A DNA stretch of 51,406 bases from a virus: positions 1-51,406 of IMG/VR virus record IMGVR_UViG_3300027606_000001. One strand, 5' to 3'. How positions within the stretch are numbered: the stretch's first letter is position 1; each line of letters opens with the position of its first letter. Made by a program: the position numbers and the translations under genes. The notes under the pieces are model-generated. The model did not search any database and was not told the DNA's origin. It saw only the letters and a list, made by a program, of their open reading frames with translations. Below, piece by piece: positions 12,203-51,258 of the stretch.

Positions 12203-12217
12203 GCAATATCTCCAGGC

Positions 12218-12244
12218 ATAAAAAAACCCGCGCATGGCGGGTTT
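12218..12244 (-). terminator. Intrinsic terminator after the zinc-ribbon membrane gene
   Basis: Minus strand: aaacccgc-catgc-gcgggttt followed by a T-run. Confidence 0.7.
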
Positions 12245-12263
12245 ATCTTCGTTTGGGCTCAGG

Positions 12264-12560
12264 TCATTCTTTGACCGGTTCTAGGTCAGACTGGCAGTGT
12301 TTGCACTTGATGGCTTCCCTCTGGACCACCTCGGCGCAGAACGGGCACTTTCGATAAAGGGAGGAGGTACCAAACTTCCTGGCGATCTCGATACTCTTCT
12401 GCTCGTCCACCCCCAAGGGGTTTGCCAGCCATACAGCGATAAGTCCGATGGCTGGGAAGACAAAGCCAAGGATGAACCAACCCACAGGATTTCTGCCCTT
12501 CTGATTTGCGAAATAGGCAGTCACGCCAGCCAACGCCAGCCAGATGATGAACAGTTCCAT
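12264..12560 (-). CDS. Small membrane protein with a C-terminal zinc ribbon (98 aa)
   Basis: MELFIIWLALAGVTAYF and WFILGFVFPAIGLIAVWL form two TM segments, followed by CPFC-N13-CKHC; A/T-richer than its flanks; has its own terminator. Confidence 0.7.
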   Translation of the reverse strand: MELFIIWLALAGVTAYFANQKGRNPVGWFILGFVFPAIGLIAVWLANPLGVDEQKSIEIARKFGTSSLYRKCPFCAEVVQREAIKCKHCQSDLEPVKE

Positions 12561-12645
12561 GAACCCTCCTTGTCGATGCGAGCAATCTACCATTTCACGG
12601 CCGGCATGGGTTAGCCTGCGATCCAATCCTAAAAGGAGTAAATCT

Positions 12646-13038
12646 ATGGGCTGGACGCTGAAAGCTGAGGATATCCTGCGCCAATCTAGTGCTCTCGCAG
12701 AGGTTGACGGAAAACCTACCAGCTCCTTCGCTGCGCAGAAGAATGACCTGGAGACGATGCTCAGCTGCTGCGATGCAGAGGAGTCTACATATTGGCGTCA
12801 GGCGCCAGGCTCGAGAATTAGTGCCGCACCATTTTTCTTCGAGCGCGCAGCCATAATTCTCAGCAAGCGCAAGCAGTACGCAGACGTTGTAACGATATGC
12901 AATCGCTGGGTGGCTATTGCCGATGACTACCGAAACCAGCCAATGGTCTTTAATGGATCAGCTGCACAATGCCACTTAGGCCCAAGGGCTCGGGCGATCG
13001 AAAAGCAAAGGGCTCGAGCCATTTCGAAGCTGGGATAG
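12646..13038 (+). CDS. Hypothetical protein (130 aa), divergent from the zinc-ribbon gene
   Basis: SD aaaggag 7 nt upstream of ATG 12646; A/T-richer than the phage backbone. Confidence 0.6.
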   Translation: MGWTLKAEDILRQSSALAEVDGKPTSSFAAQKNDLETMLSCCDAEESTYWRQAPGSRISAAPFFFERAAIILSKRKQYADVVTICNRWVAIADDYRNQPMVFNGSAAQCHLGPRARAIEKQRARAISKLG

Positions 13039-13143
13039 GGATCTCAGCTTGAGACTTCTCGATGCGGCCAGCCGCCGCTCGCCGACAAGCGCCATCCGCT
13101 CCCCCTCCCATTTGGTCTACCCTTACCCTCCCCAATCACTCAC

Positions 13144-13353
13144 ATGAAGGGTGCGAAGATGCCCGACGATGAGAAGCGGAGATTTGCCGAGGCGCTGGAG
13201 CACTGGGCGGAAGCTGTGGATGCGATCCGCGCCCGGGATCGGGCCGAGGCCATTGCCCAGGTCGAAGAACTACGGAGCAGGCACCTGATGCGGGCTTTCC
13301 ACACCAGCGCGCTATGGGAGCACTATGCGTGGAAGCGCCGGGGCCCGGGGTGA
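13144..13353 (+). CDS. Hypothetical small protein (69 aa; alternative start 13159)
   Basis: GC-rich third codon positions in this frame; no family recognised. Confidence 0.4.
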   Translation: MKGAKMPDDEKRRFAEALEHWAEAVDAIRARDRAEAIAQVEELRSRHLMRAFHTSALWEHYAWKRRGPG

Positions 13354-13494
13354 GTCCAAGCCGGTCATCGAAGCCAAGCGCCAGCCATCGGGCATTTGTT
13401 TTCCCTTCCGCACCACCTCCAAAGCGTATAGTACTCAGTGGTATGGCCCCAGGCGGTGAAGCGCGCCGGGACCAGGGCGGTATCAGCCCGAATT

Positions 13495-13779
13495 TCAATC
13501 AGCGCTGCTGAATTTTTTCGTATCGATAGCGGGTGCGACAAACTCTGGACCATCACCAGCTGCCCGCCACCGCACGTTAGTAAGTCCGTAACGCTCAGCC
13601 ATAGGACGGCTGACCTTCTTGATCTTGTGCTGACCAAAGCGCGGGATTATACCCACTCCAGCGTCGCAGCTCGCCCAGTGCCACGCCTCAACATTGTCCA
13701 TCCGTTCAAGTCGGATTATGAAGGTACGGTACTCACCGCGGATCTCATACTCGATCACATACAACTGTTGCCCTGCCAT
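13495..13779 (-). CDS. Hypothetical protein (94 aa, MAGQQLYVIEYEIRGEYRTF...)
   Basis: SD aaggag upstream of ATG 13779; possibly a Pseudomonas DUF family (recall only). Confidence 0.55.
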   Translation of the reverse strand: MAGQQLYVIEYEIRGEYRTFIIRLERMDNVEAWHWASCDAGVGIIPRFGQHKIKKVSRPMAERYGLTNVRWRAAGDGPEFVAPAIDTKKFSSAD

Positions 13780-13949
13780 CAAGCCATCTCCTTTCTCAGT
13801 CCACGGCTGATGGAGTGCAAACTGAACTAAAAAATTCATTCGGAATTGGCGATCCCTGGGGGTGAAACAGCGGCACCGATTAGCTATACGCTGGCGTGCT
13901 AAACCGTGATCTGTCGCAGCAATCATTCGTAGAGGATGGGCACATCATA

Positions 13950-14486
13950 ATGAGCAATTTTGTCATCATTTCCGGCTGCTCAGGCGGAGGCAAATCCACG
14001 CTTCTCTCCGAGCTTCAGCGACGCGGATACGCCGTGATCGAAGAGCCGGGGCGGCGCGTCGTGCAAGAGCAAATACATACTGGAGGACAAGCGTTGCCAT
14101 GGCTCGACATGGAGGCCTTCTTGCGGCGCGCAATCAATGTAGCTCTGGATGACTATGCCAATGCACCAGCCTGCGGTTCTCACTGGGTGTTCTTCGATCG
14201 GGGTCTAGTTGATGCAGCTGCGGCCCTTCAAGCGCTGACCGATGAGCCCCTCCTCGACAAACTACGTCAGCAGAATCGCTATCATTCACACGTTTTCCTA
14301 ACGCCGCCATGGCCCGAAATCTACGTGCAGGACGATGAGCGTCGCCACGACATGACTGTCGCTCTGCGTGAATATGAGCGACTCCAGACAACTTATCCGT
14401 CTCTAGGCTATTCGGTATCGCTGGTGCCGAAAGTCAGCGTGGCCGAGCGTGCCGACTTCGTGCTGACTACCTTAGGAAATCGCTGA
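13950..14486 (+). CDS. P-loop NTPase (AAA_28 / NadR-kinase-like)
   Basis: The Walker A motif GCSGGGKST lies directly after the start MSNFVIISG; FFDRG is a Walker-B-like motif; 178 aa. Confidence 0.7.
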   Translation: MSNFVIISGCSGGGKSTLLSELQRRGYAVIEEPGRRVVQEQIHTGGQALPWLDMEAFLRRAINVALDDYANAPACGSHWVFFDRGLVDAAAALQALTDEPLLDKLRQQNRYHSHVFLTPPWPEIYVQDDERRHDMTVALREYERLQTTYPSLGYSVSLVPKVSVAERADFVLTTLGNR

Positions 14487-14524
14487 CCAGCAGAATTGGG
14501 TATGACAGGTGTGAAAGCCAGATG

Positions 14525-14557
14525 CAAAAAGCCCAGCGCGGGGCTGGGCTCTTCTTG
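14525..14557. terminator. Bidirectional hairpin terminator between convergent genes
   Basis: aaaaagcccagc-gcggg-gctgggct-cttctt; the T-run is on the minus strand, with a weaker one on the plus strand. Confidence 0.65.
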
Positions 14558-14567
14558 CAATTAGAGT

Positions 14568-14861
14568 CTAGCAGTGTGCGACCTTGCGCTTTCTTTCGGC
14601 TGTGAAGGCTGTCTGCCTGGCCTTGTCAACGCCCCAAGCCAGCGCAGTAGTCATCGTTTCCCCTGGTCGTGAGTCGAAAGACACTTCATACAAAGTTCGG
14701 CCAGATGGCTCATACACCCCGATGAACATCTGCGTGCTGCCCGTGCGCGACAACCTCACCTGGACGTCGATCGACGTTCCGTCATCCAGGGTTTCATCGT
14801 GGTCACGATGGTGCAGGCTCGGATCGGCCCAATCCCAGAACACATCTCCTCGCATCCGCAT
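14568..14861 (-). CDS. Hypothetical protein (97 aa)
   Basis: ORF track; terminator directly downstream; no family recognised. Confidence 0.5.
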   Translation of the reverse strand: MRMRGDVFWDWADPSLHHRDHDETLDDGTSIDVQVRLSRTGSTQMFIGVYEPSGRTLYEVSFDSRPGETMTTALAWGVDKARQTAFTAERKRKVAHC

Positions 14862-15146
14862 GCCGACCTCCTACGACTTTCGTCTCAATGGTGAATGTCA
14901 TCCCACCATAGCGCCGTCAACTGATCGCACAAGAAATTGACGTCAAAATACGTCGTAAAACTGACCGCCGGGCCTGATATCTGTACGAGGAGTAATGCTT
15001 GTATAGAGTTTGGATAATGCTAGCGGCTGCCCCTGTCCACCCATCCACCCTGGACGGAAAGCCAGTGGAAGGATTGGATCCAGCCGTAGTAGCGTTGTGA
15101 CCCCATGCGGCAGTCGCATGGCGATCAACCCTCACGAGTACATTTC

Positions 15147-15416
15147 ATGACCGCTGACGCTGAATTCCTTCGCGAAAAGTCCAAGAAAGGACAAAAAAAC
15201 ATCGAGTTCCGGGAGTTGATGGATTCCATCAAGTGTGAAATCAATGATCAAACCCAAGCAGGCTTTTACAGCACCACCTACAAGCTCAGCGACGATAAAG
15301 TTGAATTCGCAGACGCGGTAGTTGAGCGCTTTGAAGAAAGCGAAGATCCATGCAAAGTGACCTTCGACGCCGATAAGTCCACGCTTCACATCAGCTGGGA
15401 AAAACCAGAAGAGTAA
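15147..15416 (+). CDS. Hypothetical acidic protein (89 aa)
   Basis: Starts MTADAEFLREKSKKGQ; A/T-rich; first gene of a plus-strand two-gene unit. Confidence 0.5.
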   Translation: MTADAEFLREKSKKGQKNIEFRELMDSIKCEINDQTQAGFYSTTYKLSDDKVEFADAVVERFEESEDPCKVTFDADKSTLHISWEKPEE

Positions 15417-15484
15417 CCCTCCAACCATGCCCCGGTCCGTTGCCGAAAAGCCCATGGACTGGGGTCTGCCCAAAAGGAATTCCG

Positions 15485-15682
15485 ATGAAGAACAGTAAGA
15501 AGGTCGTCCACGAGTTGAATTCCGCTGTCCAGAAATTCAACCAGACGATGAGGTCCGTCGGCTCCAGCAGGCCAGATGCTCAGGCCGCAGCAGATTGCTT
15601 CAATCGACTTGTAGCAGCCATTTCCGACATCGACCAGCGCCTTGTAGAGCTGGAGGAGGCCCACGAGAGCGCCCAGCTATAG
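15485..15682 (+). CDS. Hypothetical small helical protein (65 aa)
   Basis: Starts MKNSKKVVHEL, with aaaagga upstream. Confidence 0.45.
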   Translation: MKNSKKVVHELNSAVQKFNQTMRSVGSSRPDAQAAADCFNRLVAAISDIDQRLVELEEAHESAQL

Positions 15683-15689
15683 GGGAAAG

Positions 15690-15896
15690 CTAGCTCAGTG
15701 CCGCAGTGAATTCGATGGTGACATCTCCGTAACCTTCAACATCTGGAAGAATCCTTTCCAAATGCATTCGGGTCATCTCTCCATGATCGAACGACGGGTC
15801 GTTGCCGTACTTTAGACGGAGTGCGGCGATGACCTCCTCGGCACTGAGGATGAACGTATCGATTCGGTGGTGAATGGTGGTTGTGGTCTTGCCCAT
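15690..15896 (-). CDS. Hypothetical small protein (68 aa)
   Basis: SD aggagagg upstream of ATG 15896; directly downstream of the GT stop. Confidence 0.5.
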   Translation of the reverse strand: MGKTTTTIHHRIDTFILSAEEVIAALRLKYGNDPSFDHGEMTRMHLERILPDVEGYGDVTIEFTAALS

Positions 15897-15921
15897 ACCC
15901 CTCTCCTGCGGCCTGGCCGCG

Positions 15922-16694
15922 TCAGTCGTTGCTGTTCTGCTCCGCCCAGTTGGCGCGGAATTCTTCGTCCAAGGCGAACACCACGGCCTCAAGCTCGTCG
16001 CGATCGATGGCGGTCGGGTGCCGGGCCAGGTACTCGCTGACCATGCCCGCCGTGATTGGCGCCGGTGCGGCCATCATGCCGACGTACTGCCGGGACCTGC
16101 TGATCGCGTTGTACGCGTCGAGCAGATGGTCGGTGACCGGGTCAATCTCCGGGGCCATCGGTACCGCACCTACGCCACTCAGGCGCTCGCGCTTCCACCT
16201 CTTTTTCTCGTTGCCCTCGCCCGCCCAGTCACGACCCCATCGGTAGACGGCGAGAGCTTTCCCACCGACTCCTTGATGCGCTCCTCGACGCGGTTGGCGA
16301 TGTCGACGCCGGTGCGCAGGGCCAGGAAGTAGACGCTGGGCATCTGCTCGATCAGGGCCTTGCCCAGTTCCGGGGTGTAAGCTGCCGGCTCACCCGGGCG
16401 CTCGGCCACGTCGACGCCCTCCCAGCCCTTGATCAAGTGGTGCGCCACCAGGTCCATGTAGAGCTCGTCGTCGACCTCGATCTCGGCCTGGGGGATCTGG
16501 GCAACGCTGAACTGCTTGGTGCCGACGCCGGCCTGGGAGTCGACTGCTGCCAGGTGCCGGTTGATCAGCGCGCGGTGAGATCGGTACACGGGGTCGGCGG
16601 TGGAGCCAACCAGAATCTTGGCGCCTGGGGCGAACTCCACCCAGCGCTGGCCGTGGAGGTCCAGCTCGGGCTTGCGAGCAATGGTGAATCCCAT
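15922..16694 (-). CDS. Tail assembly chaperone fusion (GT-like) made by a programmed -1 frameshift
   Basis: After the G GGA AAG slip, the -1 frame reads GKALAVYRWGRDWAGEGNEKKRWKRERLSGVGAVPMAPEID... with no stop until 15922. Confidence 0.75.
16179..16694 (-). CDS. Tail assembly chaperone (lambda G-like)
   Basis: 171 aa from MGFTIARKPEL (SD gaggaag); follows the major tail gene; contains a slippery heptamer near its 3' end. Confidence 0.8.
   Translation of the reverse strand: MGFTIARKPELDLHGQRWVEFAPGAKILVGSTADPVYRSHRALINRHLAAVDSQAGVGTKQFSVAQIPQAEIEVDDELYMDLVAHHLIKGWEGVDVAERPGEPAAYTPELGKALIEQMPSVYFLALRTGVDIANRVEERIKESVGKLSPSTDGVVTGRARATRKRGGSASA
16257..16263 (-). promoter_or_regulatory. Slippery heptamer GGGAAAG (-1 ribosomal frameshift site)
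   Basis: The minus strand reads gtc-ggt-G-GGA-AAG-ctc in the G frame, the same heptamer as lambda G/GT. Confidence 0.75.
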
Positions 16695-30532: not shown

Positions 30533-31294
30533 TCACACCCCCTCCCCGGCCGGCTGCCCGGCGCGCTTGATGTTCAACTTGGCCAGCAGGTGTGCACGGC
30601 ACGCGGCGGCGCTGGTTGGGATCTGCTGGATCTCCAGCAGCCGCACCTGGCGCTGGGCGGCGTATTCGTCAGCGAGCTGAGCCAGCCCCTTCTGACTGTC
30701 GTGGCCGATGCCGGTGGCGATGTCGCCCAGTGGCTCGCCGGCGACCAACATGCGAATGGTGATGTCGTAGGCCCGGGCGAACACCTTCTCGGCCCGCTCC
30801 ACCTCCATCGACCCCAGGTTCTGCGCTTCGCATTGCAGGGCCGCGTGGCGCACCGCTGAATGCGTCCAAACGCGTGACCCTGCCCTGCTGGGGTGGAAGT
30901 TCTCCAGCGCCTCTGCCAGGGCCCGCGCAAGCGGCGGAATGCCCATCTCTTCCGGAGTCGGCTGGCACAACTTGATGAACTTGCCGCTGCTTGGGGCGAA
31001 GTCGGTACCCAGCACCCGACACTTCTGTATGCCGAAGCGGATCTGCTCGAGCGTGTTGATGCCTGCGGCGACAAAGGACTTGATCCAGCTGCGCTTGGCA
31101 GCCTTCAGGGCCTCGTCGTCCGGCCAGGCCTGCTTCCATGCCGGGAAGATGGCCTGCAGCTCCTTGAACAGGGCGTTGACCACTTCGGTGGTGCCTGGGT
31201 CCAGCTGCTTGGCCGGGACCTGGGCCTCGGCGGGCAGATTGCGGGCCGTGGCCATGATCTGCGTGACGCTATTGGGAGCGCTCGGCGTGCTCAT
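30533..31294 (-). CDS. Replication protein P-like (helicase loader family)
   Basis: FPAWKQAWPDDEALKAAKRSWIKSF...IRFGIQKCR...FAPSSGKFIKLC resembles lambda P family proteins. Confidence 0.7.
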   Translation of the reverse strand: MSTPSAPNSVTQIMATARNLPAEAQVPAKQLDPGTTEVVNALFKELQAIFPAWKQAWPDDEALKAAKRSWIKSFVAAGINTLEQIRFGIQKCRVLGTDFAPSSGKFIKLCQPTPEEMGIPPLARALAEALENFHPSRAGSRVWTHSAVRHAALQCEAQNLGSMEVERAEKVFARAYDITIRMLVAGEPLGDIATGIGHDSQKGLAQLADEYAAQRQVRLLEIQQIPTSAAACRAHLLAKLNIKRAGQPAGEGV

Positions 31295-32067
31295 AGCGCC
31301 CCCAAGTCATCAGCCCATGTCGTGTCGTTGAAGTCGGGACCATTGACCTGGCGCTTCACCGGGAACGGGCGAACGTTGCTCGCGGCAGCCACGTCACGCT
31401 TCACCCACTTGACCAGCAGACTCACCCACGAGGCTTGCGTCTCGCAGCGGCCTGATGCCGAGTAGTGGCAGACGAATGCGGCGGTCGCCTCATCGGTGAA
31501 CAGGTCGACAGGGATTCCCATACGGGTCGCGTAGGCTTTCAGCAGCTTCTGGTCAGGCTTCCACTCAAGGTCCATCTCGGTCGGAAGCTTTGGGTCAAAG
31601 CCGGATTCCTCGCCCGCGCGTTGTGTGTTGTGTTCTTCCTTTCCATTCCCTTCCCTTCCGGGGTCAACCGGTCGACGACCAGTCGACGACTCCTCGGCGA
31701 ATTGTCGACGAGCGCTCTCCGACTCATCGTCGATTTCTGCCGGCGGCGCTGGGTACTTGAAGTTCTTTTTCTCGATCTTCTGGTGCTTCCAGCCGCAGAT
31801 GTGCAGGTAGTTTTTCCCCGCAGCCCAGTAGCTGCGGGTCAGCTCGGCCCCCTCCAGCTCACCCAGGAGCGCGGATACCTCCTCCGTGGTGATGTCGTCA
31901 CCGGGGAAGACCAGGGCCTTGATCGTGCGGGCGGCCAGCGGGTGGTTGCCACCGTCATCGCAGAAGTTCCAGAGGCCAATGAACAGGAGCCTGGCCAACG
32001 GGCGGCAGGACATGACCTGCTCGCTCGACCAGAATTCGGGCTTGATGGTGCGGATGCGGGCCATCAT
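31291..32067 (-). CDS. Replication initiator (O-like, DnaT-like C-terminal domain)
   Basis: Starts MARIRTIKPEFWSSEQV; has a low-complexity acidic linker; contains iteron-like repeats; precedes the P-like gene. Confidence 0.65.
   Translation of the reverse strand: MMARIRTIKPEFWSSEQVMSCRPLARLLFIGLWNFCDDGGNHPLAARTIKALVFPGDDITTEEVSALLGELEGAELTRSYWAAGKNYLHICGWKHQKIEKKNFKYPAPPAEIDDESESARRQFAEESSTGRRPVDPGREGNGKEEHNTQRAGEESGFDPKLPTEMDLEWKPDQKLLKAYATRMGIPVDLFTDEATAAFVCHYSASGRCETQASWVSLLVKWVKRDVAAASNVRPFPVKRQVNGPDFNDTTWADDLGAL
31671..31734. repeat. Iteron-like repeats GTCGACGA(C/G) x3 plus one inverted partial copy
   Basis: Copies at 31671, 31682 and 31704 (offsets of 11 and 22 bp); inverted tcgtcgat at 31727; adjacent polypyrimidine tract at 31621-31660. 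Confidence 0.55.
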
Positions 32068-32822
32068 TGGACCTCCAGGTTGTACTGCGCCCACAGGCCG
32101 GCCACCCAGGTAACGCCCTTTGGGGTGAATTTGGTCTGGTTGAAGGCGTGGCCGTTCTCGGCAGTGTCGGTTTTGACTTCGAATCGCCCGGCGTCGATGT
32201 GCTGCTGATACGCCTGCCACTCACCGCCCATGCGGTACATGATCTTCCTGTCGAGCAGGAACTCCCGGAAGCGGGCCTCATTAGCCCTCAGCAGCTTGGC
32301 GGTTTGGCGGAATCCCTTGAGGCCAGTCGACTGCACGTATTTGTCGACGAACTCGACCTTTGGCGCGGCAATGGCCAGGGCCTGCTGGGCAATCTGCTTC
32401 TGCTCCATTTCATCAGCCCAGGCACGAGCTGCAGCCACTGGATTGGAAAAGTCAGGAAGTGTTGCTATGACACGTGGGGCTTCGAGGGACTTGAGCTTGG
32501 CCAATACGCTTCGACGTACAGCCTTCGACTCACGCATGCCAACCAGCATGCATTGATCCAGCGTCAGCCTGTAGGTGGCGACCTGGTTGCCGTGTACAGG
32601 GGTGAAATATTTTTGCACCCCCTCAAGATCATCGCCTAACTCGTCTTCTACCCGAGAGAGAAACTGGTCATTTCTGACTTTCGGCTCGCCAGCTGTAAGG
32701 CGTGCATCGTTGATGAGGTCACGAAGCTCGATGCTGCTCATCGTGCGCGCCACGAAATCGTGGTTCGCATTTTGTGGCGCGGGCCGGATGAGGGCCTGTA
32801 CACTTGGGGTCTGTGGATGCAT
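32064..32822 (-). CDS. Antirepressor-type protein (Rha-like N-terminus, KilAC C-terminal domain)
   Basis: SSIELRDLINDA...VRNDQFLSRVEDEL is Rha-like; PVAAARAWADEMEQKQIAQQALAIAAPKVEFVDKYV is KilAC-like; the start is uncertain (32822 or 32741). Confidence 0.7.
   Translation of the reverse strand: MHPQTPSVQALIRPAPQNANHDFVARTMSSIELRDLINDARLTAGEPKVRNDQFLSRVEDELGDDLEGVQKYFTPVHGNQVATYRLTLDQCMLVGMRESKAVRRSVLAKLKSLEAPRVIATLPDFSNPVAAARAWADEMEQKQIAQQALAIAAPKVEFVDKYVQSTGLKGFRQTAKLLRANEARFREFLLDRKIMYRMGGEWQAYQQHIDAGRFEVKTDTAENGHAFNQTKFTPKGVTWVAGLWAQYNLEVQ
32747..32780. repeat. Palindromic element copy c (GCGCCAC-N20-GTGGCGC)
   Basis: gcgccacgaaatcgtggttcgcattttgtggcgc. Confidence 0.8.
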
Positions 32823-32831
32823 AATTGGTCT

Positions 32832-32877
32832 CACTTTTATGCGTTGCAGAGAGCCGGGGTGCCACCCGGCTTTTTTG
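32832..32877 (+). ncRNA. Candidate short antisense RNA (sar/oop-like) opposite the antirepressor translation start region
   Basis: Plus-strand promoter TGTACA-N17-CATAAT (32797-32825) followed about 45 nt later by the terminator at 32852-32877. Confidence 0.35.
32852..32877 (+). terminator. Strong plus-strand intrinsic terminator inside the minus-strand early operon
   Basis: agccggg-gtgcca-cccggc followed by tttttt. Confidence 0.7.
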
Positions 32878-32907
32878 TGCCCGATATTCGGGCTTATCAG
32901 GGCCTGT

Positions 32908-33087
32908 TCAGGCCTTGCGCTGGAACGGAAGGACCGTCCCCCTCGCGCTTCGAGGTTTCGTTCGGCTGGCCAGCTCTCGATCAATCAGCTCGGCTGCTAG
33001 CGCTTCAGGGGTGACCCCCCGCTTCCGCGCCTCTCGCTCAAGTAATTCCATCGAGCCCGGATCCAGACCGAATTTTTCGGTCGGCAT
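32908..33087 (-). CDS. Small protein (59 aa, below the ORF-track cut-off)
   Basis: MPTEKFGLDPGSMELLEREARKRGVTPEALAAELIDRELASRTKPRSARGTVLPFQRKA; strong SD gaggagg 5 nt upstream of ATG 33087. Confidence 0.6.
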   Translation of the reverse strand: MPTEKFGLDPGSMELLEREARKRGVTPEALAAELIDRELASRTKPRSARGTVLPFQRKA

Positions 33088-33294: not shown

Positions 33295-33324
33295 GCAGTG
33301 GAGGCTCCTTGTTGGGGAAATGTA

Positions 33325-33531
33325 TTAAGCGGCAGTCTTCTTGATCGCCACTTGGCACGGGAACGGGCGGATCTCTTCAGCACTGAAGCTCCCGTCTGCG
33401 TTTTCTGTAACAAACACAACCCGGCCTACGCGGATCGCTTTGCTCAAAGCGCCTTGGGTCATTCCAAGAAGCGCGGCAGCTTCTGCCTGGCCGCGCTGGC
33501 TGGCGAACTGCGCTATGTGAATTCGGCTCAT
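33325..33531 (-). CDS. cro: Cro-like HTH repressor
   Basis: 68 aa from MSRIHIAQFASQRGQAEAAALLGMTQGALSKAI (HTH); divergent from cI across the operator region. Confidence 0.75.
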   Translation of the reverse strand: MSRIHIAQFASQRGQAEAAALLGMTQGALSKAIRVGRVVFVTENADGSFSAEEIRPFPCQVAIKKTAA

Positions 33532-33561
33532 GGGCGGTCTCCATGGATTGCTCATGAAGGA

Positions 33562-33631
33562 ATATTACCTATGGCATTTATAAAATTCAATGCCATCGGC
33601 GTTTGTCGTGTATTACCGCTAGGAATACGAT
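33562..33631. promoter_or_regulatory. OR-like switch region with divergent PR and PRM candidates and operator 16-mers
   Basis: TATTACCTATGGCATT (33563-78) and the inverted AATGCCATCGGCGTTT (33589-604); PR on the minus strand is TTGAAT-N17-TAATAT; PRM on the plus strand is TTGTCG-N17-TACGAT, ending 7 nt before the cI ATG. Confidence 0.6.
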
Positions 33632-33638
33632 TCGTCGC

Positions 33639-34436
33639 ATGAAAAAACGCGCGCTACCAGAAGACCGAAAAGCTGAGTGCCTTCGCCTGAAGGCAATTTT
33701 CAATTCAAAGAAGAAAGACCTGGGTCTTACCCAGGAGAAGCTGGCGCACCTGCTGGACATGAACCAGAGCTCCGTCAGCCACTATCTGAACGGAGTGAAT
33801 CCGCTAAACGCCCAGGTGGCAGCCGCTTTTTCGCGCATCCTGCAGGTTCCGGTGCGAGACTTCAGTGAGCGTCTTGCCGATGAGATCGAGGGGATTGCGG
33901 CTGCCGCTTCGATCGTTTCGAAAGCTGTTCCTAGGGTTGGAGCTGCATTGGCCAACGCCTCTATGATCGGCCCGATTTCTGTATGGGACGACGACACACC
34001 GCTGGATGACGACGAGGTTTATGTGCCGTTCCTCAAGGAAGTGGAGCTATCCGCTGGCTCCGGCCGGACGGTGATTGAGAAGTCCAGCTCCCGAAAGCTT
34101 CGCTTTGGCAAGATAACCTTGCGCAACCAGGGCGTTCAGTTCGACCAGGCAGTCTGTGTGACTGTGCATGGTAATAGCATGGAGCCAGTGCTTCCGGATG
34201 GCAGTACGGTCGGCGTCGACCGCGCATGCACCGCGGTGAAGGACGGGAAGATGTATGCGGTTGACCACGGCGGCGAGTTGCGGGTGAAAACGCTTTACCG
34301 GATGCCTGGCGGCGGCCTGCGCTTCCGCAGCTTCAACCAGGATGAGCACCCTGATGAGGAGTACACCGCGCAGCAGCTGGATGAGAGAGGAATCAGCGTG
34401 CTGGGCAAGGTGTTTTGGTACTCCGTCTTGCTCTGA
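33639..34436 (+). CDS. cI: CI-type repressor (XRE HTH plus S24 LexA-like autopeptidase)
   Basis: LGLTQEKLAHLLDMNQSSVSHYLNG is the HTH; C-terminal GNSMEP...GKMY is the S24 Ser/Lys signature. Confidence 0.9.
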   Translation: MKKRALPEDRKAECLRLKAIFNSKKKDLGLTQEKLAHLLDMNQSSVSHYLNGVNPLNAQVAAAFSRILQVPVRDFSERLADEIEGIAAAASIVSKAVPRVGAALANASMIGPISVWDDDTPLDDDEVYVPFLKEVELSAGSGRTVIEKSSSRKLRFGKITLRNQGVQFDQAVCVTVHGNSMEPVLPDGSTVGVDRACTAVKDGKMYAVDHGGELRVKTLYRMPGGGLRFRSFNQDEHPDEEYTAQQLDERGISVLGKVFWYSVLL

Positions 34437-34518
34437 ACTGGCGAGTCATCCGCAATCCTTGAGGGTAGCATTCCCATCCCTTCGACATGGGCAGCGTAAA
34501 GAGCATGGAAGAAAAATA

Positions 34519-35262
34519 ATGCCTGAGTGCATTACGGCTGTTGAAATCATAAGGCAGAGCCATCAGGGCTTTTCGATCAAGCCATTCATCATCCGTGGCG
34601 ATGATGGAAACACATACTTTGTGAAGGGTCATGAGAAAGCCGGCGGCCCAGCTCTGATTTCTGAGGTGCTAGGAGCAGAAATTGGATTGCGGATGGGTCT
34701 ACCAATTCCCCCATGGTCGCTTATGCACATCCCCGGAGAGTTGATTTCGTTCAGTGCCATGGCGAATGTCGACGACCTGCGCGGCGGGATGGCCTTCGCC
34801 TCTCGAGCGGTTGAGAATGCGACCGACTTCAGCTTGAGCAGCATCGATTCGACGCCTGCAGATCTCCGCCGAAGGATCCTCCTTTTCGACTGGTGGGTAC
34901 GAAATGGGGACCGTTGTCTTGGCCAGCACGGTGGAAACGTCAACCTTATCCTCGACTCAAACGGCGACCTCAACGTGATCGATCACAATCTCGCGTTTGA
35001 CAGAACCTTCGATCCCCAGGCATTTATGGAGTGGCACGTTTTCCGCGAATGCAGGTCATTCTTCCGAGATCTGGTTGTTCGTCAGGAGTACATGCAAATG
35101 CTTGGCGGGATAGTCGACAGCTGGGGTACGATCACCGACCTTTTGCCAGAGGACTGGCTGTATCGGGATGCGGATCAGATAGATCAAACGGAGCCGACGG
35201 TAGCTGAAAGGCTGGAAATGCTGGAAGTGTTCAGGGACGAGCGGTTCTGGGGAGCGCTATGA
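34519..35262 (+). CDS. Putative HipA / PI3K-4K-like protein kinase-fold protein (247 aa)
   Basis: TYFVKG (candidate ATP Lys36), WWVRNGDRCLGQHGGNVNLI (catalytic-loop-like D131, N140/N142) and VIDHNLAF (DFG-like D155); A/T-richer than cI. Confidence 0.55.
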   Translation: MPECITAVEIIRQSHQGFSIKPFIIRGDDGNTYFVKGHEKAGGPALISEVLGAEIGLRMGLPIPPWSLMHIPGELISFSAMANVDDLRGGMAFASRAVENATDFSLSSIDSTPADLRRRILLFDWWVRNGDRCLGQHGGNVNLILDSNGDLNVIDHNLAFDRTFDPQAFMEWHVFRECRSFFRDLVVRQEYMQMLGGIVDSWGTITDLLPEDWLYRDADQIDQTEPTVAERLEMLEVFRDERFWGAL

Positions 35263-36095
35263 AGTACATCTGCAACTACTCTATTTTGAGGTTCTTGCCT
35301 TACCCAGAAACAGGCGAATTTGTGAACATTGGGGTCGTCTTGATCGCCAACAATGGTGACTTTCGCTTCAAAATTGAGAAGAAGCGTCAGCGAGTGACGA
35401 ATTTCTTCCCCAGCTTGGAGGCGAAGATTTTCCTTCGCGCTCGACGTGAGATTGAGGCGGAATTGACCAGGCTCAGCGGCTTCTTCACCACTGATCGGTC
35501 GGATCTCTCAGCAATCCTCGGCACTTTCAAGCATCTCATCCACCCTCGTGAAACGATGATGCGATTTAGCGATCCTGGGACGATGGCAATTGAAAACGCT
35601 AACGACGCGATCAACGTGCTCTTTGACCACTACGTAAATCACAGCTTCGCCAACAAGGAGTATCAAGAGACCGTCCTTGAGCGACAGCTCGGAAAGCTTC
35701 TATCGTCCAACAATCTTAAGCAGAAATACAGCGACATGAAGCTTGGCAGCACTGACTACATGGTCAAATTTCCGTTCGTAATGGTTAATGGCAGTGAGCC
35801 GGTGCAAGCACTCAAACCCCTTCACCTGGGGCATGACGAGCCAGCCAAAATCATTGATCATGGCGACGCTTGGATCTCCAAAATTCGCCGCCTCAAGGGG
35901 ACAGGGGACCTAGCGCGAGATACCCTGTTCATAGCTGGGCCGCCCGAGGATGGCAGACCAAAACTGCTAAAAGCCTTCAAGGAAATTTGCAGCGAACTTC
36001 AAAATTTCCCAGGCGTGAGGGTTACCAGTACTGCTGAAACCCAGAAACATATTCTCGAGGAAATCCGAAAGGGAATCCCAGGAACAGTGCACTGA
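35259..36095 (+). CDS. DUF3037-like protein (278 aa)
   Basis: The N-terminus MKYICNYSILRFLPYPETGEFVNIGVVLIANNG matches my recollection of the DUF3037 signature; ATGA overlap with the kinase gene. Confidence 0.55.
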   Translation: MKYICNYSILRFLPYPETGEFVNIGVVLIANNGDFRFKIEKKRQRVTNFFPSLEAKIFLRARREIEAELTRLSGFFTTDRSDLSAILGTFKHLIHPRETMMRFSDPGTMAIENANDAINVLFDHYVNHSFANKEYQETVLERQLGKLLSSNNLKQKYSDMKLGSTDYMVKFPFVMVNGSEPVQALKPLHLGHDEPAKIIDHGDAWISKIRRLKGTGDLARDTLFIAGPPEDGRPKLLKAFKEICSELQNFPGVRVTSTAETQKHILEEIRKGIPGTVH

Positions 36096-36099
36096 TCTC

Positions 36100-36123
36100 A
36101 AGCCCGCCTCGGCGGGCTTTTTT
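36100..36123 (+). terminator. Intrinsic terminator ending the cI-cargo operon
   Basis: aagcccgc-ctcg-gcgggctt followed by ttttt. Confidence 0.8.
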
Positions 36124-36166
36124 CATGCTCGCGCGCCGGCCTGGCGCCTGAAACCTACCCTCCTGT

Positions 36167-36190
36167 AGCCCGCCGCTGAGCGGGTTTTCT
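36167..36190 (+). terminator. Second (tandem) intrinsic terminator
   Basis: agcccgc-cgctga-gcgggtt followed by ttct. Confidence 0.55.
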
Positions 36191-36207
36191 GTGCCTGAAC
36201 GAAAAAA

Positions 36208-36251
36208 TATTACCATCGGCATTGACAGCTAAATAATGCCATTGGTAATGT
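36208..36251 (+). promoter_or_regulatory. OL/PL-like operator-promoter
   Basis: TATTACCATCGGCATT (36208-23) and the inverted AATGCCATTGGTAATG (36235-50) flank TTGACA (36222-27) -N18- TAATGT; the same 16-mer family occurs at OR. Confidence 0.6.
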
Positions 36252-36799
36252 TTACTTCATCGAGGCGCTACACAGTCCCTCGGGAGGCCCCTCACCGGCC
36301 GCCGCTCTTTCACATTGATGGGAACCTCGCGGATCGATCCCGGCAACGGTACAGCGCGAGCAATAAATTCGATCCCCATGCCAGCTCTGGAACTGGTGAA
36401 CAGACCGCATTGCCTCTACCGGCGACCGGCGCCAGACAGCCCCGAAAGGCTGCCCACGACAGGGAGAACCCTGTACGGCTGACGAAGGCGAAATGCCTGA
36501 ACCGAGCGAATGACCTGGCAAGCAATGCGCCCCGCGAATCCCAGCGGCAGAAGGGAGAGACACCGATTCGAATTAGCGCCCCGAGCTTCAGCATGGGGCG
36601 CCGGACCTCATGCGCCCTGCCCCGACCAGTCAGGGCGCCAGAGCTGCAGCGAGCATGTTGTAAGGACCTCCGATCCATGGCGAACAGATGCTGATTCCCG
36701 CCATGAGGAGGAAGCTCGCCGCCCGAACCGACGACGAAGATGGCGCCAGACCTGCAATCAGCAGCGGGAATGGCGCACACATCGCTGACGCAAGAGACC

Positions 36800-36858: not shown

Positions 36859-37377
36859 TTACTGTCGCAGATAGGCGAACATGTGCTGAACATAATCGGC
36901 CTTCCCGAGCGGAACGCCGTTGTGACGCAGAATGTTATAAGCAGTGACTAAATGGAAGTAGAACTGGGGTGTAACCCAGTTAACTGCGTACTCACTTCCA
37001 GTCATATCAAAATTAATGTTATTTGGTAGTTCGATTGCGATCTTGAGGTCTGCTGCTGCATCTATCGCTGCGGCATCAGCAGTTTCTAGAATATGTAACG
37101 TTCGCTCAATCAAAGCCTTTGCTGATGAAATGTCTTCTGGCGGAGAGAGCGTCTCAAGCGGCTGCTGTGTAAGTCGCTGAACCGCCTCCAGCCCTTGGAC
37201 GCACGCATATTGGACCTGCCGAGCAAGATTGTGCATATCAGGCGCCAGCCGAGACTCAAGCAAGACTACCGGATCGTAGCCCCCTTCAAGTGCGTGGGTC
37301 TCACCTTTGGACAAAATTTCCGATAGGGACCGTAACATTTGGGAAAAACAGGGGATTGTGATTGCATAAATGGACAT
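36859..37377 (-). CDS. DUF1993-like protein (172 aa)
   Basis: MSIYAITIPCFSQMLRSLSEILSKG...FYFHLVTAYNILRHNGVPLGKADY matches my recollection of DUF1993; A/T-rich; opposite strand to the early-left operon. Confidence 0.65.
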   Translation of the reverse strand: MSIYAITIPCFSQMLRSLSEILSKGETHALEGGYDPVVLLESRLAPDMHNLARQVQYACVQGLEAVQRLTQQPLETLSPPEDISSAKALIERTLHILETADAAAIDAAADLKIAIELPNNINFDMTGSEYAVNWVTPQFYFHLVTAYNILRHNGVPLGKADYVQHMFAYLRQ

Positions 37378-41082: not shown

Positions 41083-41844
41083 ATGACCAGCGCAATCATT
41101 GTGCCCGACCAGCGCCGCCAGGCAGTGGCTGCGCCCGGCCCCGTCGATAACAGCATCATGGCGGTCATCAGCCGAGCGGCCGCCGATCCTACATGCGACA
41201 TCGAGAAGATGGAACGCCTCCTGGCCATGCATGAGCGCATGCAGGCCAAGACAGCTGAAGCAGCTTTCAACGCTGGCATGGCCCAGATGCAGTGCGAGAT
41301 CCCGACCGTGTTCGAAGCGGCGGTGAACCTGCACACCGGAAATGCCTACGCAACCCTCGACGACATCACCCGGGTGGTAAAACCGATCATGCAGCGGCAC
41401 GGGTTCGCGATCACCTTCAAGGTGGAGAACCAGGACAAGTCGATCAGCGTCACCGGCATCCTGATGCACCGCGACGGCCACCGCGAGCAGACAACCATGA
41501 CCCTGCCGGCCGATATCGGCAAAGGCCGGAACGATGTTCAGGCGGTCGGTTCGTCCACCACCTACGGCAAGCGCTACGTGATGTGCGCCTTGCTGAACAT
41601 CACAACCGGCGACGTCAGGGACGATGACGCGCAATCGTCGGACGGCTCCGATACGGCAGAAGTGCGGGCCCAGGCGGTGAACGACATCCTTGCCCAGGTC
41701 GAAGCTGCCGCCACGCCAGACGAGCTCAAGGATGTGTGGCAGGCATCCGTAAAGGTCATGCAGGCCAGCGGCGACAAAGCCGGATACGACGCGGTGAAGA
41801 TCGCCGTGACCAAGCGGAAAACAGTACTGGAGGCCACCCCATGA
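41083..41844 (+). CDS. erf: ERF-family single-strand annealing protein
   Basis: NAYATLDDITRVVKPIMQRHGF...STTYGKRYVMCALLNI is an ERF superfamily signature. Confidence 0.8.
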   Translation: MTSAIIVPDQRRQAVAAPGPVDNSIMAVISRAAADPTCDIEKMERLLAMHERMQAKTAEAAFNAGMAQMQCEIPTVFEAAVNLHTGNAYATLDDITRVVKPIMQRHGFAITFKVENQDKSISVTGILMHRDGHREQTTMTLPADIGKGRNDVQAVGSSTTYGKRYVMCALLNITTGDVRDDDAQSSDGSDTAEVRAQAVNDILAQVEAAATPDELKDVWQASVKVMQASGDKAGYDAVKIAVTKRKTVLEATP

Positions 41845-50193: not shown

Positions 50194-51258
50194 ATGCGCA
50201 ACAGAAAGGCATCGAACAAGGACCTGCCGCCCAGGATGCTGCGGCGGGTCCGAAAGATGAAGAGCGGGAAATTGTGGGTTGGGTACTACTACGACGGGAG
50301 GGATGCAGACGGGAAGCGGAGGGAGGTACCGCTGGGGACTGACCTCGCTGAGGCCAAGCTGGAATGGGCGCGACTGGAACACAAGGCCGCGCCGAAGGTG
50401 ATGTCGACGATGGGCGAGCTGTTCAACCGGTACGAGCGGGACATTATCCCGACCAAGTCGCCGCGCACCCAGAAGGACAACATGTACGAGCTGGAGCGCC
50501 TGCGCAAAGCATTCGCCGAAGCCCCGATCGAGGCAATCACGCCGCCGGTTATTGCTCAGTACCGGGACGCACGAACTGCGAAAACACGGGCAAACCGGGA
50601 GATCGCCCTGCTGTCTCACGTGTTTACCATGTCCATGGAGTGGGGCTTCGCCGAACGCAACCCCTGCCTGGCAGTTCGTCGAAACAAGGAGAAGGTTCGC
50701 GACTTCTACGCTGCCGACGAGATCTGGGATGCCGTGTATGGCGAAGGTGACCAGGGACTCAAGGACGCTATGGACCTGGCCTACCTGGCCGGCCAGCGGC
50801 CTGCCGACACATTGAAGTTCAGCACCGTCGACCTCGACGAGGATTACCTGTGGGTCGACCAGAACAAGACCGACAAGAAGCTGCGGATTCGCCGGCACAT
50901 CGATGGCGTTCTGACCGGGCTTGGCCTGTTCATCGAGGCGCTGCTCGAGCGGCGCAAGTTGCAGGGCGTCCGCAACTCGCGCCTCATCACTAACGACTCC
51001 GGCCTGCGCATGAGCTGGGAGATGCTGAGGAACCGCTTCAGCGAAGCGCGGGACAAGGCAGCGAGAAAGCTAACCGCCGACGGCAACACCGATCTGGCCG
51101 CCAAGGTTCGGCAGTTCCAATTCCGTGACATCCGACCAAAGGCAGCCTCGGAAATTGAGGACATCAGCCAAGCGAGCAGGCTGCTTGGCCACTCCAAGGA
51201 GGACATCACAAAGCGGGTGTACCGCCGTGTCGGTGAAGTCGTCAGCCCAACCAAGTAG
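50194..51258 (+). CDS. int: Tyrosine integrase (lambda Int family)
   Basis: Arm-binding N-terminus; catalytic-domain motifs AYLAGQRPADTL, LLGHS and VYRR; adjacent to the att site. Confidence 0.9.
   Translation: MRNRKASNKDLPPRMLRRVRKMKSGKLWVGYYYDGRDADGKRREVPLGTDLAEAKLEWARLEHKAAPKVMSTMGELFNRYERDIIPTKSPRTQKDNMYELERLRKAFAEAPIEAITPPVIAQYRDARTAKTRANREIALLSHVFTMSMEWGFAERNPCLAVRRNKEKVRDFYAADEIWDAVYGEGDQGLKDAMDLAYLAGQRPADTLKFSTVDLDEDYLWVDQNKTDKKLRIRRHIDGVLTGLGLFIEALLERRKLQGVRNSRLITNDSGLRMSWEMLRNRFSEARDKAARKLTADGNTDLAAKVRQFQFRDIRPKAASEIEDISQASRLLGHSKEDITKRVYRRVGEVVSPTK

Follow-up and report, generated by a model that had tools for sequence, protein, structure and literature searches.

The slot downstream of the phage repressor gene cI houses exclusion systems in lambda and in P. 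putida, in both cases RexAB (PMC12894663). DS-6 is a two-gene system that protects E. coli: defence is lost when DS-6A carries a catalytic mutation, DS-6A and DS-6B form a complex in AlphaFold3 predictions, and DS-6B has been described as a DUF3037 plus DUF1829 protein (PMC13092281). According to the citation in that article, DS-6 was validated and renamed HipAD by Brenes & Laub (2025). In the E. coli phage PhiR5_1 (PV340545.1), the annotation names such a pair, located directly after cI, HipA toxin and HipD antitoxin. The pairing is also listed as PDC-M66 in PADLOC-DB v2.0.0, where it is itself a computational candidate only (the main text of the preprint by Payne et al. 2024 contains no mention of HipA or PDC-M66). 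Finally, a kinase gene and a DUF3037 gene are found in the Retron-Sda1 operon: deletion of the former abolishes defence, deletion of the latter is toxic, and the RT and the ncRNA are dispensable (PMC12548924). The pairing has therefore already been predicted, named and experimentally validated, and the locus described below is not a new kind of system, contrary to the preliminary description, which had presented the pairing as undescribed.

We analysed a pair of this type in the immunity region of a 51,406-nt stretch of viral DNA (IMG/VR record IMGVR_UViG_3300027606_000001; hereafter the window). Homology and gene order make it quite likely that the pair represents the HipAD family (DS-6, PDC-M66) in a Pseudomonas phage, i.e. 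that it is a two-gene toxin–antitoxin-type anti-phage system acting by the mechanism proposed below. The proposal made at the outset, that two genes at the rexAB position form an anti-phage or abortive-infection module and are probably expressed in the lysogen, finds as much support as sequence can give, with homologues that defend in a kinase-dependent manner (PMC13092281, PMC12548924). The features of the region are collected in Table 1.

Table 1. Features of the immunity region, in window coordinates
Feature	Position	Strand	Description	Basis
cro	33325..33555	-	divergent from cI	Pfam Cro PF09048, E 3.7e-19
OR-type operator region between cro and cI	33563..33626		exact 16-mer 33563-33578, degenerate copies to 33626	pattern search; repeat families D3, D4, I4
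cI-type repressor gene	33639..34436	+	S24 autopeptidase; phrog_4 transcriptional repressor	HTH_3 E 1.1e-08, Peptidase_S24 E 1e-21
cI–hipA spacer	34437..34518	+	82 nt	scan and fold
HipA_2-family kinase gene (ORF1, hipA)	34519..35262	+	247 aa; presumed toxin/effector	
DUF3037 gene (ORF2, hipD)	35259..36095	+	278 aa; presumed antitoxin	
Intrinsic terminator closing cI-hipA-hipD	36100..36125 (hairpin 36100-36119)	+	8-bp G+C-rich stem and T6	dG -16.9 kcal/mol, z -4.05
Second terminator-like hairpin, weak	36167..36190 (hairpin to 36186)	+	7-bp stem	dG -11.1, z -0.95
OL/PL-type operator pair	36208..36250 (36208-36223, 36235-36250)	+		pattern search; repeat family I5

The pair lies between cI and the OL/PL-type operator, and its two genes meet in an ATGA junction, in which the ATG of ORF2 (35259-35261) overlaps the TGA of ORF1 (35260-35262). 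The spacer that separates cI from ORF1 contains no terminator-like site by scan and no stable fold (z +1.08), and neither the scan nor a reading of the sequence reveals a promoter-like site in it. Because the spacer is devoid of both kinds of signal and a strong terminator follows hipD, hipA and hipD are probably co-transcribed with cI, as judged from the layout of the region; a weak internal promoter may also be present within the cI-hipA-hipD unit. The coordinates of cI and the two ORFs, the overlap and the terminator-free gap were borne out as first described. The two tandem terminators described along with them were only half supported: the hairpin at 36100 is a strong one, whereas the hairpin at 36167 is weak (29 of 200 shuffles fold equally well).

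The 16-mer TATTACCNNNGGCATT, said to be common to both operators, does occur exactly at 33563 and 36208, and with one mismatch on the minus strand at 36235; the pattern search found no further site with fewer than three mismatches elsewhere in the 51 kb. Overlapping the second operator pair, a promoter-like site (TTGACA-17-GGTAAT) that we recognized by reading the sequence faces the early-left genes (the scan reports an overlapping site), and genes for an ERF recombinase and an integrase follow downstream of the operator on the plus strand. The A/T-richness of the pair, previously judged by eye, was confirmed: no 1577-nt stretch of the window has less G+C than the pair, at 52.0% (window mean 61.0%; cI 57.5%).

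Both protein assignments of the preliminary description, made from motifs, held up in profile searches. Protein 1 matches the HipA_2 family (PF20613, E 7.4e-68, 238 of 240 profile positions covered), which is its sole Pfam match, and the PADLOC model PDC-M66A (E 4.9e-11). K36, D131, R132, N140, N142 and D155-H156-N157 are invariant in 33 homologues whose identity goes as low as 37%, and E49 is almost invariant; the catalytic residues of the kinase thus appear intact, with putative roles for the individual positions. The AF2 model (pLDDT 91, pTM 0.90) displays a kinase fold of the PI4K/CtkA-like type, and its best Foldseek matches in the PDB are PI4KII-alpha and H. pylori CtkA, followed by RIO and PIKK kinases; E. 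coli HipA is absent from the top 50 fold matches. A search of PDB sequences with the kinase alone or with the 33-sequence profile gave no match, and no NCBIfam model matches either protein of the pair. Identification of the kinase as a canonical HipA was rejected: when the family profile was aligned with E. coli K-12 HipA, hhalign returned a probability of 3%, which is not significant. On sequence grounds, 'HipA' is a loose name for this protein.

Protein 2 carries an N-terminal DUF3037 domain (PF11236, E 2.9e-20, residues 7-126), which is also matched in all 41 diverse relatives that we compared, and the protein matches PDC-M66B over residues 6-249 (E 5.4e-20). The DUF3037 profile gave chance-level matches only against PDB sequences, and no HTH domain was matched in protein 2. 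Pfam hmmscan detected no DUF1829 domain in protein 2, in PhiR5_1 HipD or in the 41 relatives; the DUF1829 call for DS-6B (PMC13092281) probably stems from a more sensitive method. The C-terminal domain is predicted to be alpha/beta, with an alpha-beta-beta-beta-alpha-beta topology, in a whole-protein model whose pTM is only 0.56.

At the protein level, the closest described counterpart that we compared in detail is the PhiR5_1 pair. The kinase is 35% identical to PhiR5_1 HipA over nearly its full length (E 1e-36), protein 2 is 30% identical to HipD over its full length (E 6e-32), and PhiR5_1 HipA itself matches the HipA_2 model (E 9.7e-77). The two loci share both Pfam families, similar protein lengths (249/275 aa in PhiR5_1 and 247/278 aa here), the 4-nt overlap and the gene order cro<-|cI->hipA->hipD, with the pair after cI and cro divergent. 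They differ in host (E. coli for PhiR5_1, Pseudomonas-type here, with 61% G+C) and in sequence, with identity of only 35%/30%. As judged from these alignments, the homology to E. coli HipAD is distant but clear. Since both PDC-M66 models are matched with moderate scores, the pair is a divergent member of that family; the matches to PADLOC and the Foldseek results given above are the outcome of two checks suggested in the preliminary description.

Other known systems resemble the locus less closely. By description, the Retron-Sda1 pair has the same two domains, defends on its own and requires its kinase (PMC12548924). Its setting is a type III retron operon, whereas the present pair lies in a prophage immunity region, and the two are further set apart, again by description, by the C-terminus of the DUF3037 protein, which resembles a retron DNA-binding protein in Retron-Sda1 and, weakly, restriction endonucleases here. 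Canonical HipBA of E. coli K-12 likewise combines a Ser/Thr-kinase-type toxin of PI3/4-kinase-like fold with an operon-encoded partner that neutralises it. Yet no significant sequence relation was found, and HipA is 440 aa long compared to 247 aa for the present kinase, so that most of its extra length is without counterpart here. Moreover, the partner of HipA is the upstream-encoded HTH antitoxin HipB, whereas the DUF3037 partner is encoded downstream; upstream of the pair, the HTH protein is phage cI with its S24 domain. With RexAB of lambda and P. putida, which are likewise accessory genes and exclude other phages, the pair shares a position only: within the immunity region, 3' of cI and before an OL/PL-type operator. 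No Rex family appears among the Pfam, PHROG and PADLOC results for the pair and, given this lack of homology and a predicted soluble kinase effector in place of the membrane protein RexB, the RexAB mechanism would be unrelated.

We surveyed related loci for co-occurrence of the two families and for adjacency to cI, as had also been suggested. Megablast of positions 33300-36300 against GenBank phages gave no match, and relatives were found at the protein level only. The kinase gene lies directly 5' of the DUF3037 gene in 91 of 94 related loci (76/76 in IMG/VR, a survey of viral contigs, and 15/18 genome loci), and 90 of 92 related pairs have the ATGA junction. Identity to the window's pair co-varies between the two proteins (r = 0.98). 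Of the 76 viral loci, 71 encode an S24-type repressor upstream of the pair and on its strand (as counted with an iterated S24 profile; two phmmer queries detect 57/76), with a gap shorter than 350 nt in 58/76. The slot after cI is thus conserved across dozens of prophages, in agreement with the rexAB-like position initially ascribed to the pair. In nine genomes from outside Pseudomonas, no S24 repressor is encoded within 2.5 kb upstream of the pair, which is also found in chromosomal, non-prophage settings of betaproteobacteria. Pairs at the related loci have 53-92% identity to that of the window, while the cI adjoining them shows 25-58% identity or no detectable similarity. The pair is marked as an accessory cassette by its low G+C content and by its presence, in other phages, beside cI genes of unrelated type; in lambda, the slot that it occupies belongs to rexAB. 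As a docking site for HipAD, this slot in lambdoid-type immunity regions is conserved far beyond E. coli, and phages of Pseudomonas, Pantoea, Salmonella and Klebsiella carry the cassette there, beside many unrelated cI types.

The available homologue experiments indicate that the kinase is both toxin and effector and that the DUF3037 protein neutralises it, roles that would carry over to the present pair by analogy. Of the two functions first suggested for the kinase, that of effector is favoured by these experiments and that of sensor finds no support. We propose that in a lysogen the repressor promoter would drive cI, hipA and hipD as one unit, up to the terminator at 36100, and that translation of hipA and hipD would be coupled through their overlap. 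The 247-aa kinase, as a growth-arresting toxin, would be held inactive by the DUF3037 protein. Infection by another phage would upset this balance, upon which the kinase would phosphorylate its target and the cell would stop supporting phage growth. HipA and HipT phosphorylate aminoacyl-tRNA synthetases, which by analogy makes a host translation factor the probable target; for an aminoacyl-tRNA synthetase in particular, the argument is one of analogy only, because the kinase family is not detectably related to HipA. The divergence of the Pseudomonas copy (30-35% identity) and its clean operon layout could help in finding the kinase target and the trigger. A variant of this mechanism that we regard as rather unlikely is that the DUF3037 protein is no passive antitoxin and that its C-terminal domain senses a phage cue, either nucleic acid or protein, and then releases the kinase, or that the kinase acts on something other than an aminoacyl-tRNA synthetase, e.g. 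a phage protein. If true, either would represent a way of sensing or killing that is as yet undescribed in the HipAD family.

The pair could act solely as an addiction module (post-segregational killing) that stabilises the prophage or penalises loss of the immunity region and plays no part against other phages: the toxicity of the DUF3037-gene deletion in Retron-Sda1 (PMC12548924) fits a plain toxin–antitoxin pair equally well, and both the tight linkage to cI and the chromosomal betaproteobacterial copies are compatible with it. We nevertheless hold this to be improbable, as two independent homologues cut phage plating in a kinase-dependent manner (PMC13092281, PMC12548924) and exclusion systems are known to reside downstream of cI (RexAB of lambda and P. 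putida; PMC12894663). That the kinase acts on the lysis–lysogeny circuit of the prophage or on host physiology (e.g. persistence), with defence as a secondary effect, seems very improbable indeed. The pair does sit within the immunity region, where it probably shares the regulation of cI, canonical HipA causes persistence, and the summary given in PMC12894663 has RexA modulating the lambda switch, but the cassette is found beside unrelated cI types and in non-prophage loci, which argues against a repressor-specific partner.

There is also little to recommend the idea that the DUF3037 protein does more than neutralise the kinase, with its C-terminal domain sensing or cutting nucleic acid and the kinase regulating it or being regulated by it. 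In its favour are the topology of the domain and an over-representation of PD-(D/E)xK nucleases among the fold matches: BstEII (E 0.0095), SfsA, Mus81 and EcoO109I, along with a restriction endonuclease of Synechococcus phage S-CAM7 (E 1.3e-3); in addition, AlphaFold3 gives a moderate DNA contact for DS-6B (ipTM 0.67; PMC13092281). These fold matches are weak, however (TM 0.2-0.35), the low pTM of the whole-protein model likewise tells against the idea, and mutation of the kinase alone was sufficient to abolish DS-6 defence (PMC13092281). A catalytic nuclease is unlikely on account of the conservation pattern as well: the only residues of the C-terminal domain that at least 90% of the 41 diverse relatives have in common are P172, I185, P187, W205 and L212, none of which is acidic or a lysine.

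The pair is, as judged from its sequence, a new Pseudomonas member of a kind of two-gene system already known as HipAD, DS-6 or PADLOC candidate PDC-M66. PADLOC, a check proposed in the preliminary description, matched the ORF1 product to M66A (E 4.9e-11) and the ORF2 product to M66B (E 5.4e-20). A tblastn search of GenBank phages matched three records, including Escherichia phage PhiR5_1 (PV340545.1), where the match is annotated 'HipD antitoxin'. The PhiR5_1 order is a leftward cro, then rightward cI, 'HipA toxin' and 'HipD antitoxin', followed by kil, gam and bet, with a 4-nt hipA/hipD overlap: slot and layout are identical to those of the window pair, whose proteins share 35% identity with HipA (E 1e-36) and 30%, over the full length, with HipD (E 6e-32).

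DS-6 comprises a HipA-related kinase (DS-6A) and a DUF3037 (plus DUF1829) protein (DS-6B); it is an experimentally validated defence system, and a catalytic mutant of the kinase loses defence (DefensePredictor study, PMC13092281). As cited there, it was found independently in E. coli prophages by the same authors and renamed HipAD (Brenes & Laub 2025). The Retron-Sda1 operon also contains a HipA-like/DUF3037 pair: kinase deletion abolished defence against phage Bas51, deletion of the DUF3037 gene was toxic, and neither the retron RT nor the ncRNA was needed (PMC12548924). The pairing, which had been presented as undescribed, is therefore not new. The window locus has all sequence-level features of HipAD/DS-6/PDC-M66 that were tested except DUF1829: whereas DS-6B is described with this domain, hmmscan did not find it in the ORF2 product, PhiR5_1 HipD or 41 relatives. 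Canonical HipBA membership was rejected, as neither the N- nor the C-terminal domain of HipA is present in the window kinase, and no HipB is encoded upstream. Position is the sole feature that the pair has in common with lambda RexAB and P. putida RexAB (PMC12894663).

The immunity region is organized as initially described, with cI, a spacer (82 nt) and two ORFs that overlap in an ATGA. The spacer contained no terminator-like or promoter-like site when scanned, and no stable structure when folded (z +1.08). Two tandem terminators had been proposed downstream; the one directly after ORF2 is strong and the second hairpin is weak, so that one of the two is convincing. The 16-mer TATTACCNNNGGCATT, reported as common to the cI/cro switch and a second operator, indeed occurs in exact copies at 33563 and 36208, with a one-mismatch copy at 36235 (minus strand); all other matches within the 51 kb have three mismatches. 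The downstream site pair (36208, 36235) flanks a promoter-like element, TTGACA-17-GGTAAT, that points toward the ERF recombinase and integrase genes on the plus strand, the whole being the mirror image of the lambda OL/PL arrangement. A weak TTGTCG-17-TACGAT element, recognized by reading alone in the 33596-33641 region and not called in the promoter scan, stops some 7 nt short of the cI start codon (ATG, 33639). Should it serve as the maintenance promoter, cI would be transcribed with almost no leader, as from lambda PRM. The cro-side early operon includes genes for a KilAC/ANT antirepressor-domain protein and, after it, a DnaT-domain replication protein.

Features of the immunity region and of the low-G+C loci in the window
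Feature	Position	Strand	Evidence or remark
Tape-measure gene	9533-12235		
Small membrane and zinc-ribbon protein (island)	12264-12626	minus	
DUF6555 protein (island)	13495-13926	minus	
AAA_28 ATPase (island)	13896-14486	plus	E 1.1e-41
DnaT-domain protein	31291-32220		
KilAC/ANT-domain protein	32064-32984	minus	PF03374, E 3.6e-25
cro, lambda-type, divergent from cI	33325-33555	minus	PF09048, E 3.7e-19
cI	33639-34436	plus	HTH_3 and Peptidase_S24 domains
ORF1, 247 aa	34519-35262	plus	sequence
ORF2, 278 aa	35259-36095	plus	sequence
Strong intrinsic terminator, directly after ORF2	36100-36119	plus	T6 run; dG -16.9 kcal/mol, z -4.05
Second hairpin, weak	36167-36186	plus	z -0.95
DUF1993 gene	36859-37377	minus	PF09351, E 4.5e-48
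ERF recombinase gene	41083-41844	plus	
Integrase gene	50194-51258	plus	

An alignment of 12 DUF3037 proteins served to fetch 18 loci in reference genomes and 76 in IMG/VR. As the scans rest on short conserved peptides and IMG/VR comprises viral contigs only, the fractions reflect the sampling of the family and not how it is distributed overall. The gene immediately preceding the DUF3037 gene encodes a HipA_2 homologue at 15 of 18 genome loci and at all 76 viral loci, the co-occurrence that the preliminary description had suggested surveying. The kinase stop codon falls within ATGA in 90/92 pairs, and the identities of both proteins to the window pair co-vary (r = 0.98). At L011 and L019 the DUF3037 gene is present and no upstream kinase was detectable; at L018 (Duganella) a single ORF matches both proteins over partial lengths and may have arisen by fusion or by decay.

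The neighbouring repressor, also on the list of proposed checks, was sought with an iterated S24-domain profile. A same-strand cI-type repressor lies upstream at 71/76 viral loci (58 of them with a distance below 350 nt) and at 6/15 genome loci, all Pseudomonas or Pantoea. The profile found none within 2.5 kb upstream at the other nine (one Pseudomonas, mostly betaproteobacteria, one Lentisphaerae MAG). Flanking ORFs inspected at such loci have the look of ordinary chromosomal genes, so the system also occurs outside prophage immunity regions. Loci L008-L017, without an S24 repressor in the 2.5 kb upstream, come from one Pseudomonas, several betaproteobacteria (Methyloversatilis, Rugamonas, Duganella, Rhodocyclaceae/Burkholderiales MAGs) and one Lentisphaerae genome; in most of them the kinase gene immediately precedes the DUF3037 gene. 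Pairs with 53-92% identity to the window pair adjoin cI proteins with 25-58% identity or no detectable similarity, so the cassette is shared among immunity types. This fits the low G+C of the pair, which at 52.0% is the lowest 1577-nt stretch in the window (mean 61.0%; cI 57.5%) and confirms the A/T-richness judged by eye.

The ORF1 product matches Pfam HipA_2 'HipA-like kinase' over the full profile (E 7.4e-68) and also phrog_3162; that of ORF2 matches DUF3037 (E 2.9e-20, residues 7-126) and, along its entire length, phrog_5137. The kinase and DUF3037 assignments agree with the motifs recognized beforehand. Close homologues, mostly from Pseudomonas, are named 'HipA family kinase' and 'DUF3037 domain-containing protein' in NCBI records; NCBIfam gave no model for either product. 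The AlphaFold2 model of ORF1 (33 homologues) is confident (pLDDT 91.1, pTM 0.90), its best PDB fold matches being type II PI4-kinase alpha (E 1.1e-5), H. pylori CtkA, RIO kinases and PIKKs; HipA is not among the top 50. K36 (in YFVKG), D131-R132, N140, N142 and D155-H156-N157 stay invariant in homologues as distant as 37% identity, so the D131A and D155A mutants proposed earlier are a sound choice. Type II PI4-kinases have catalytic and activation-loop motifs that the RNxDR...N...IDxxLAF pattern resembles.

The sequence shows an operon-like layout, translational coupling of the two genes, kinase residues that are intact and the signature of an accessory cassette. By transfer from homologous pairs, which defend and require their kinase, the pair would defend against phage through its kinase, whose toxicity the DUF3037 protein would prevent, in keeping with the anti-phage or abortive-infection role first put forward. 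The cI promoter would drive cI, ORF1 and ORF2 in the lysogen; infection would release the kinase, which would phosphorylate a host factor, and the infected cell would stop growing, as in abortive infection. An aminoacyl-tRNA synthetase as target, by analogy with HipA and HipT, is a weak proposal because the family shows no significant similarity to E. coli HipA (hhalign probability 3%).

Three other readings have less support than defence: the pair is purely an addiction module, it acts in the switch of the phage itself, or the C-terminal domain of the DUF3037 protein has a sensing or nuclease role. For the last, the ORF2 model is moderate (pLDDT 81.6, pTM 0.56), with an alpha-beta-beta-beta-alpha-beta C-terminal half among whose weak fold matches restriction-endonuclease-like proteins are enriched (in the PDB, BstEII with E 0.0095, SfsA, Mus81 and EcoO109I; in BFVD, a restriction endonuclease of Synechococcus phage S-CAM7 with E 1.3e-3). 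However, no acidic or lysine residue of this half is conserved in at least 90% of 41 diverse relatives, which makes catalytic nuclease activity unlikely. In an exhaustive search, 784 clusters (50% identity) were related to ORF2 at E <= 0.001, of which 154 reached E <= 1e-30; the majority span nearly its whole length.

Other low-G+C genes are present. An accessory island (12260-15990; about 54% G+C around 13700-14400) breaks up the block of tail genes beside the tape-measure gene and also holds several unassigned ORFs on both strands. PADLOC matched neither the island genes nor the DUF1993 product. Just downstream of the second operator/promoter, the DUF1993 gene (about 48-51% G+C) lies on the strand opposite to the presumed PL-type early-left operon, an unusual orientation, and it too looks acquired.
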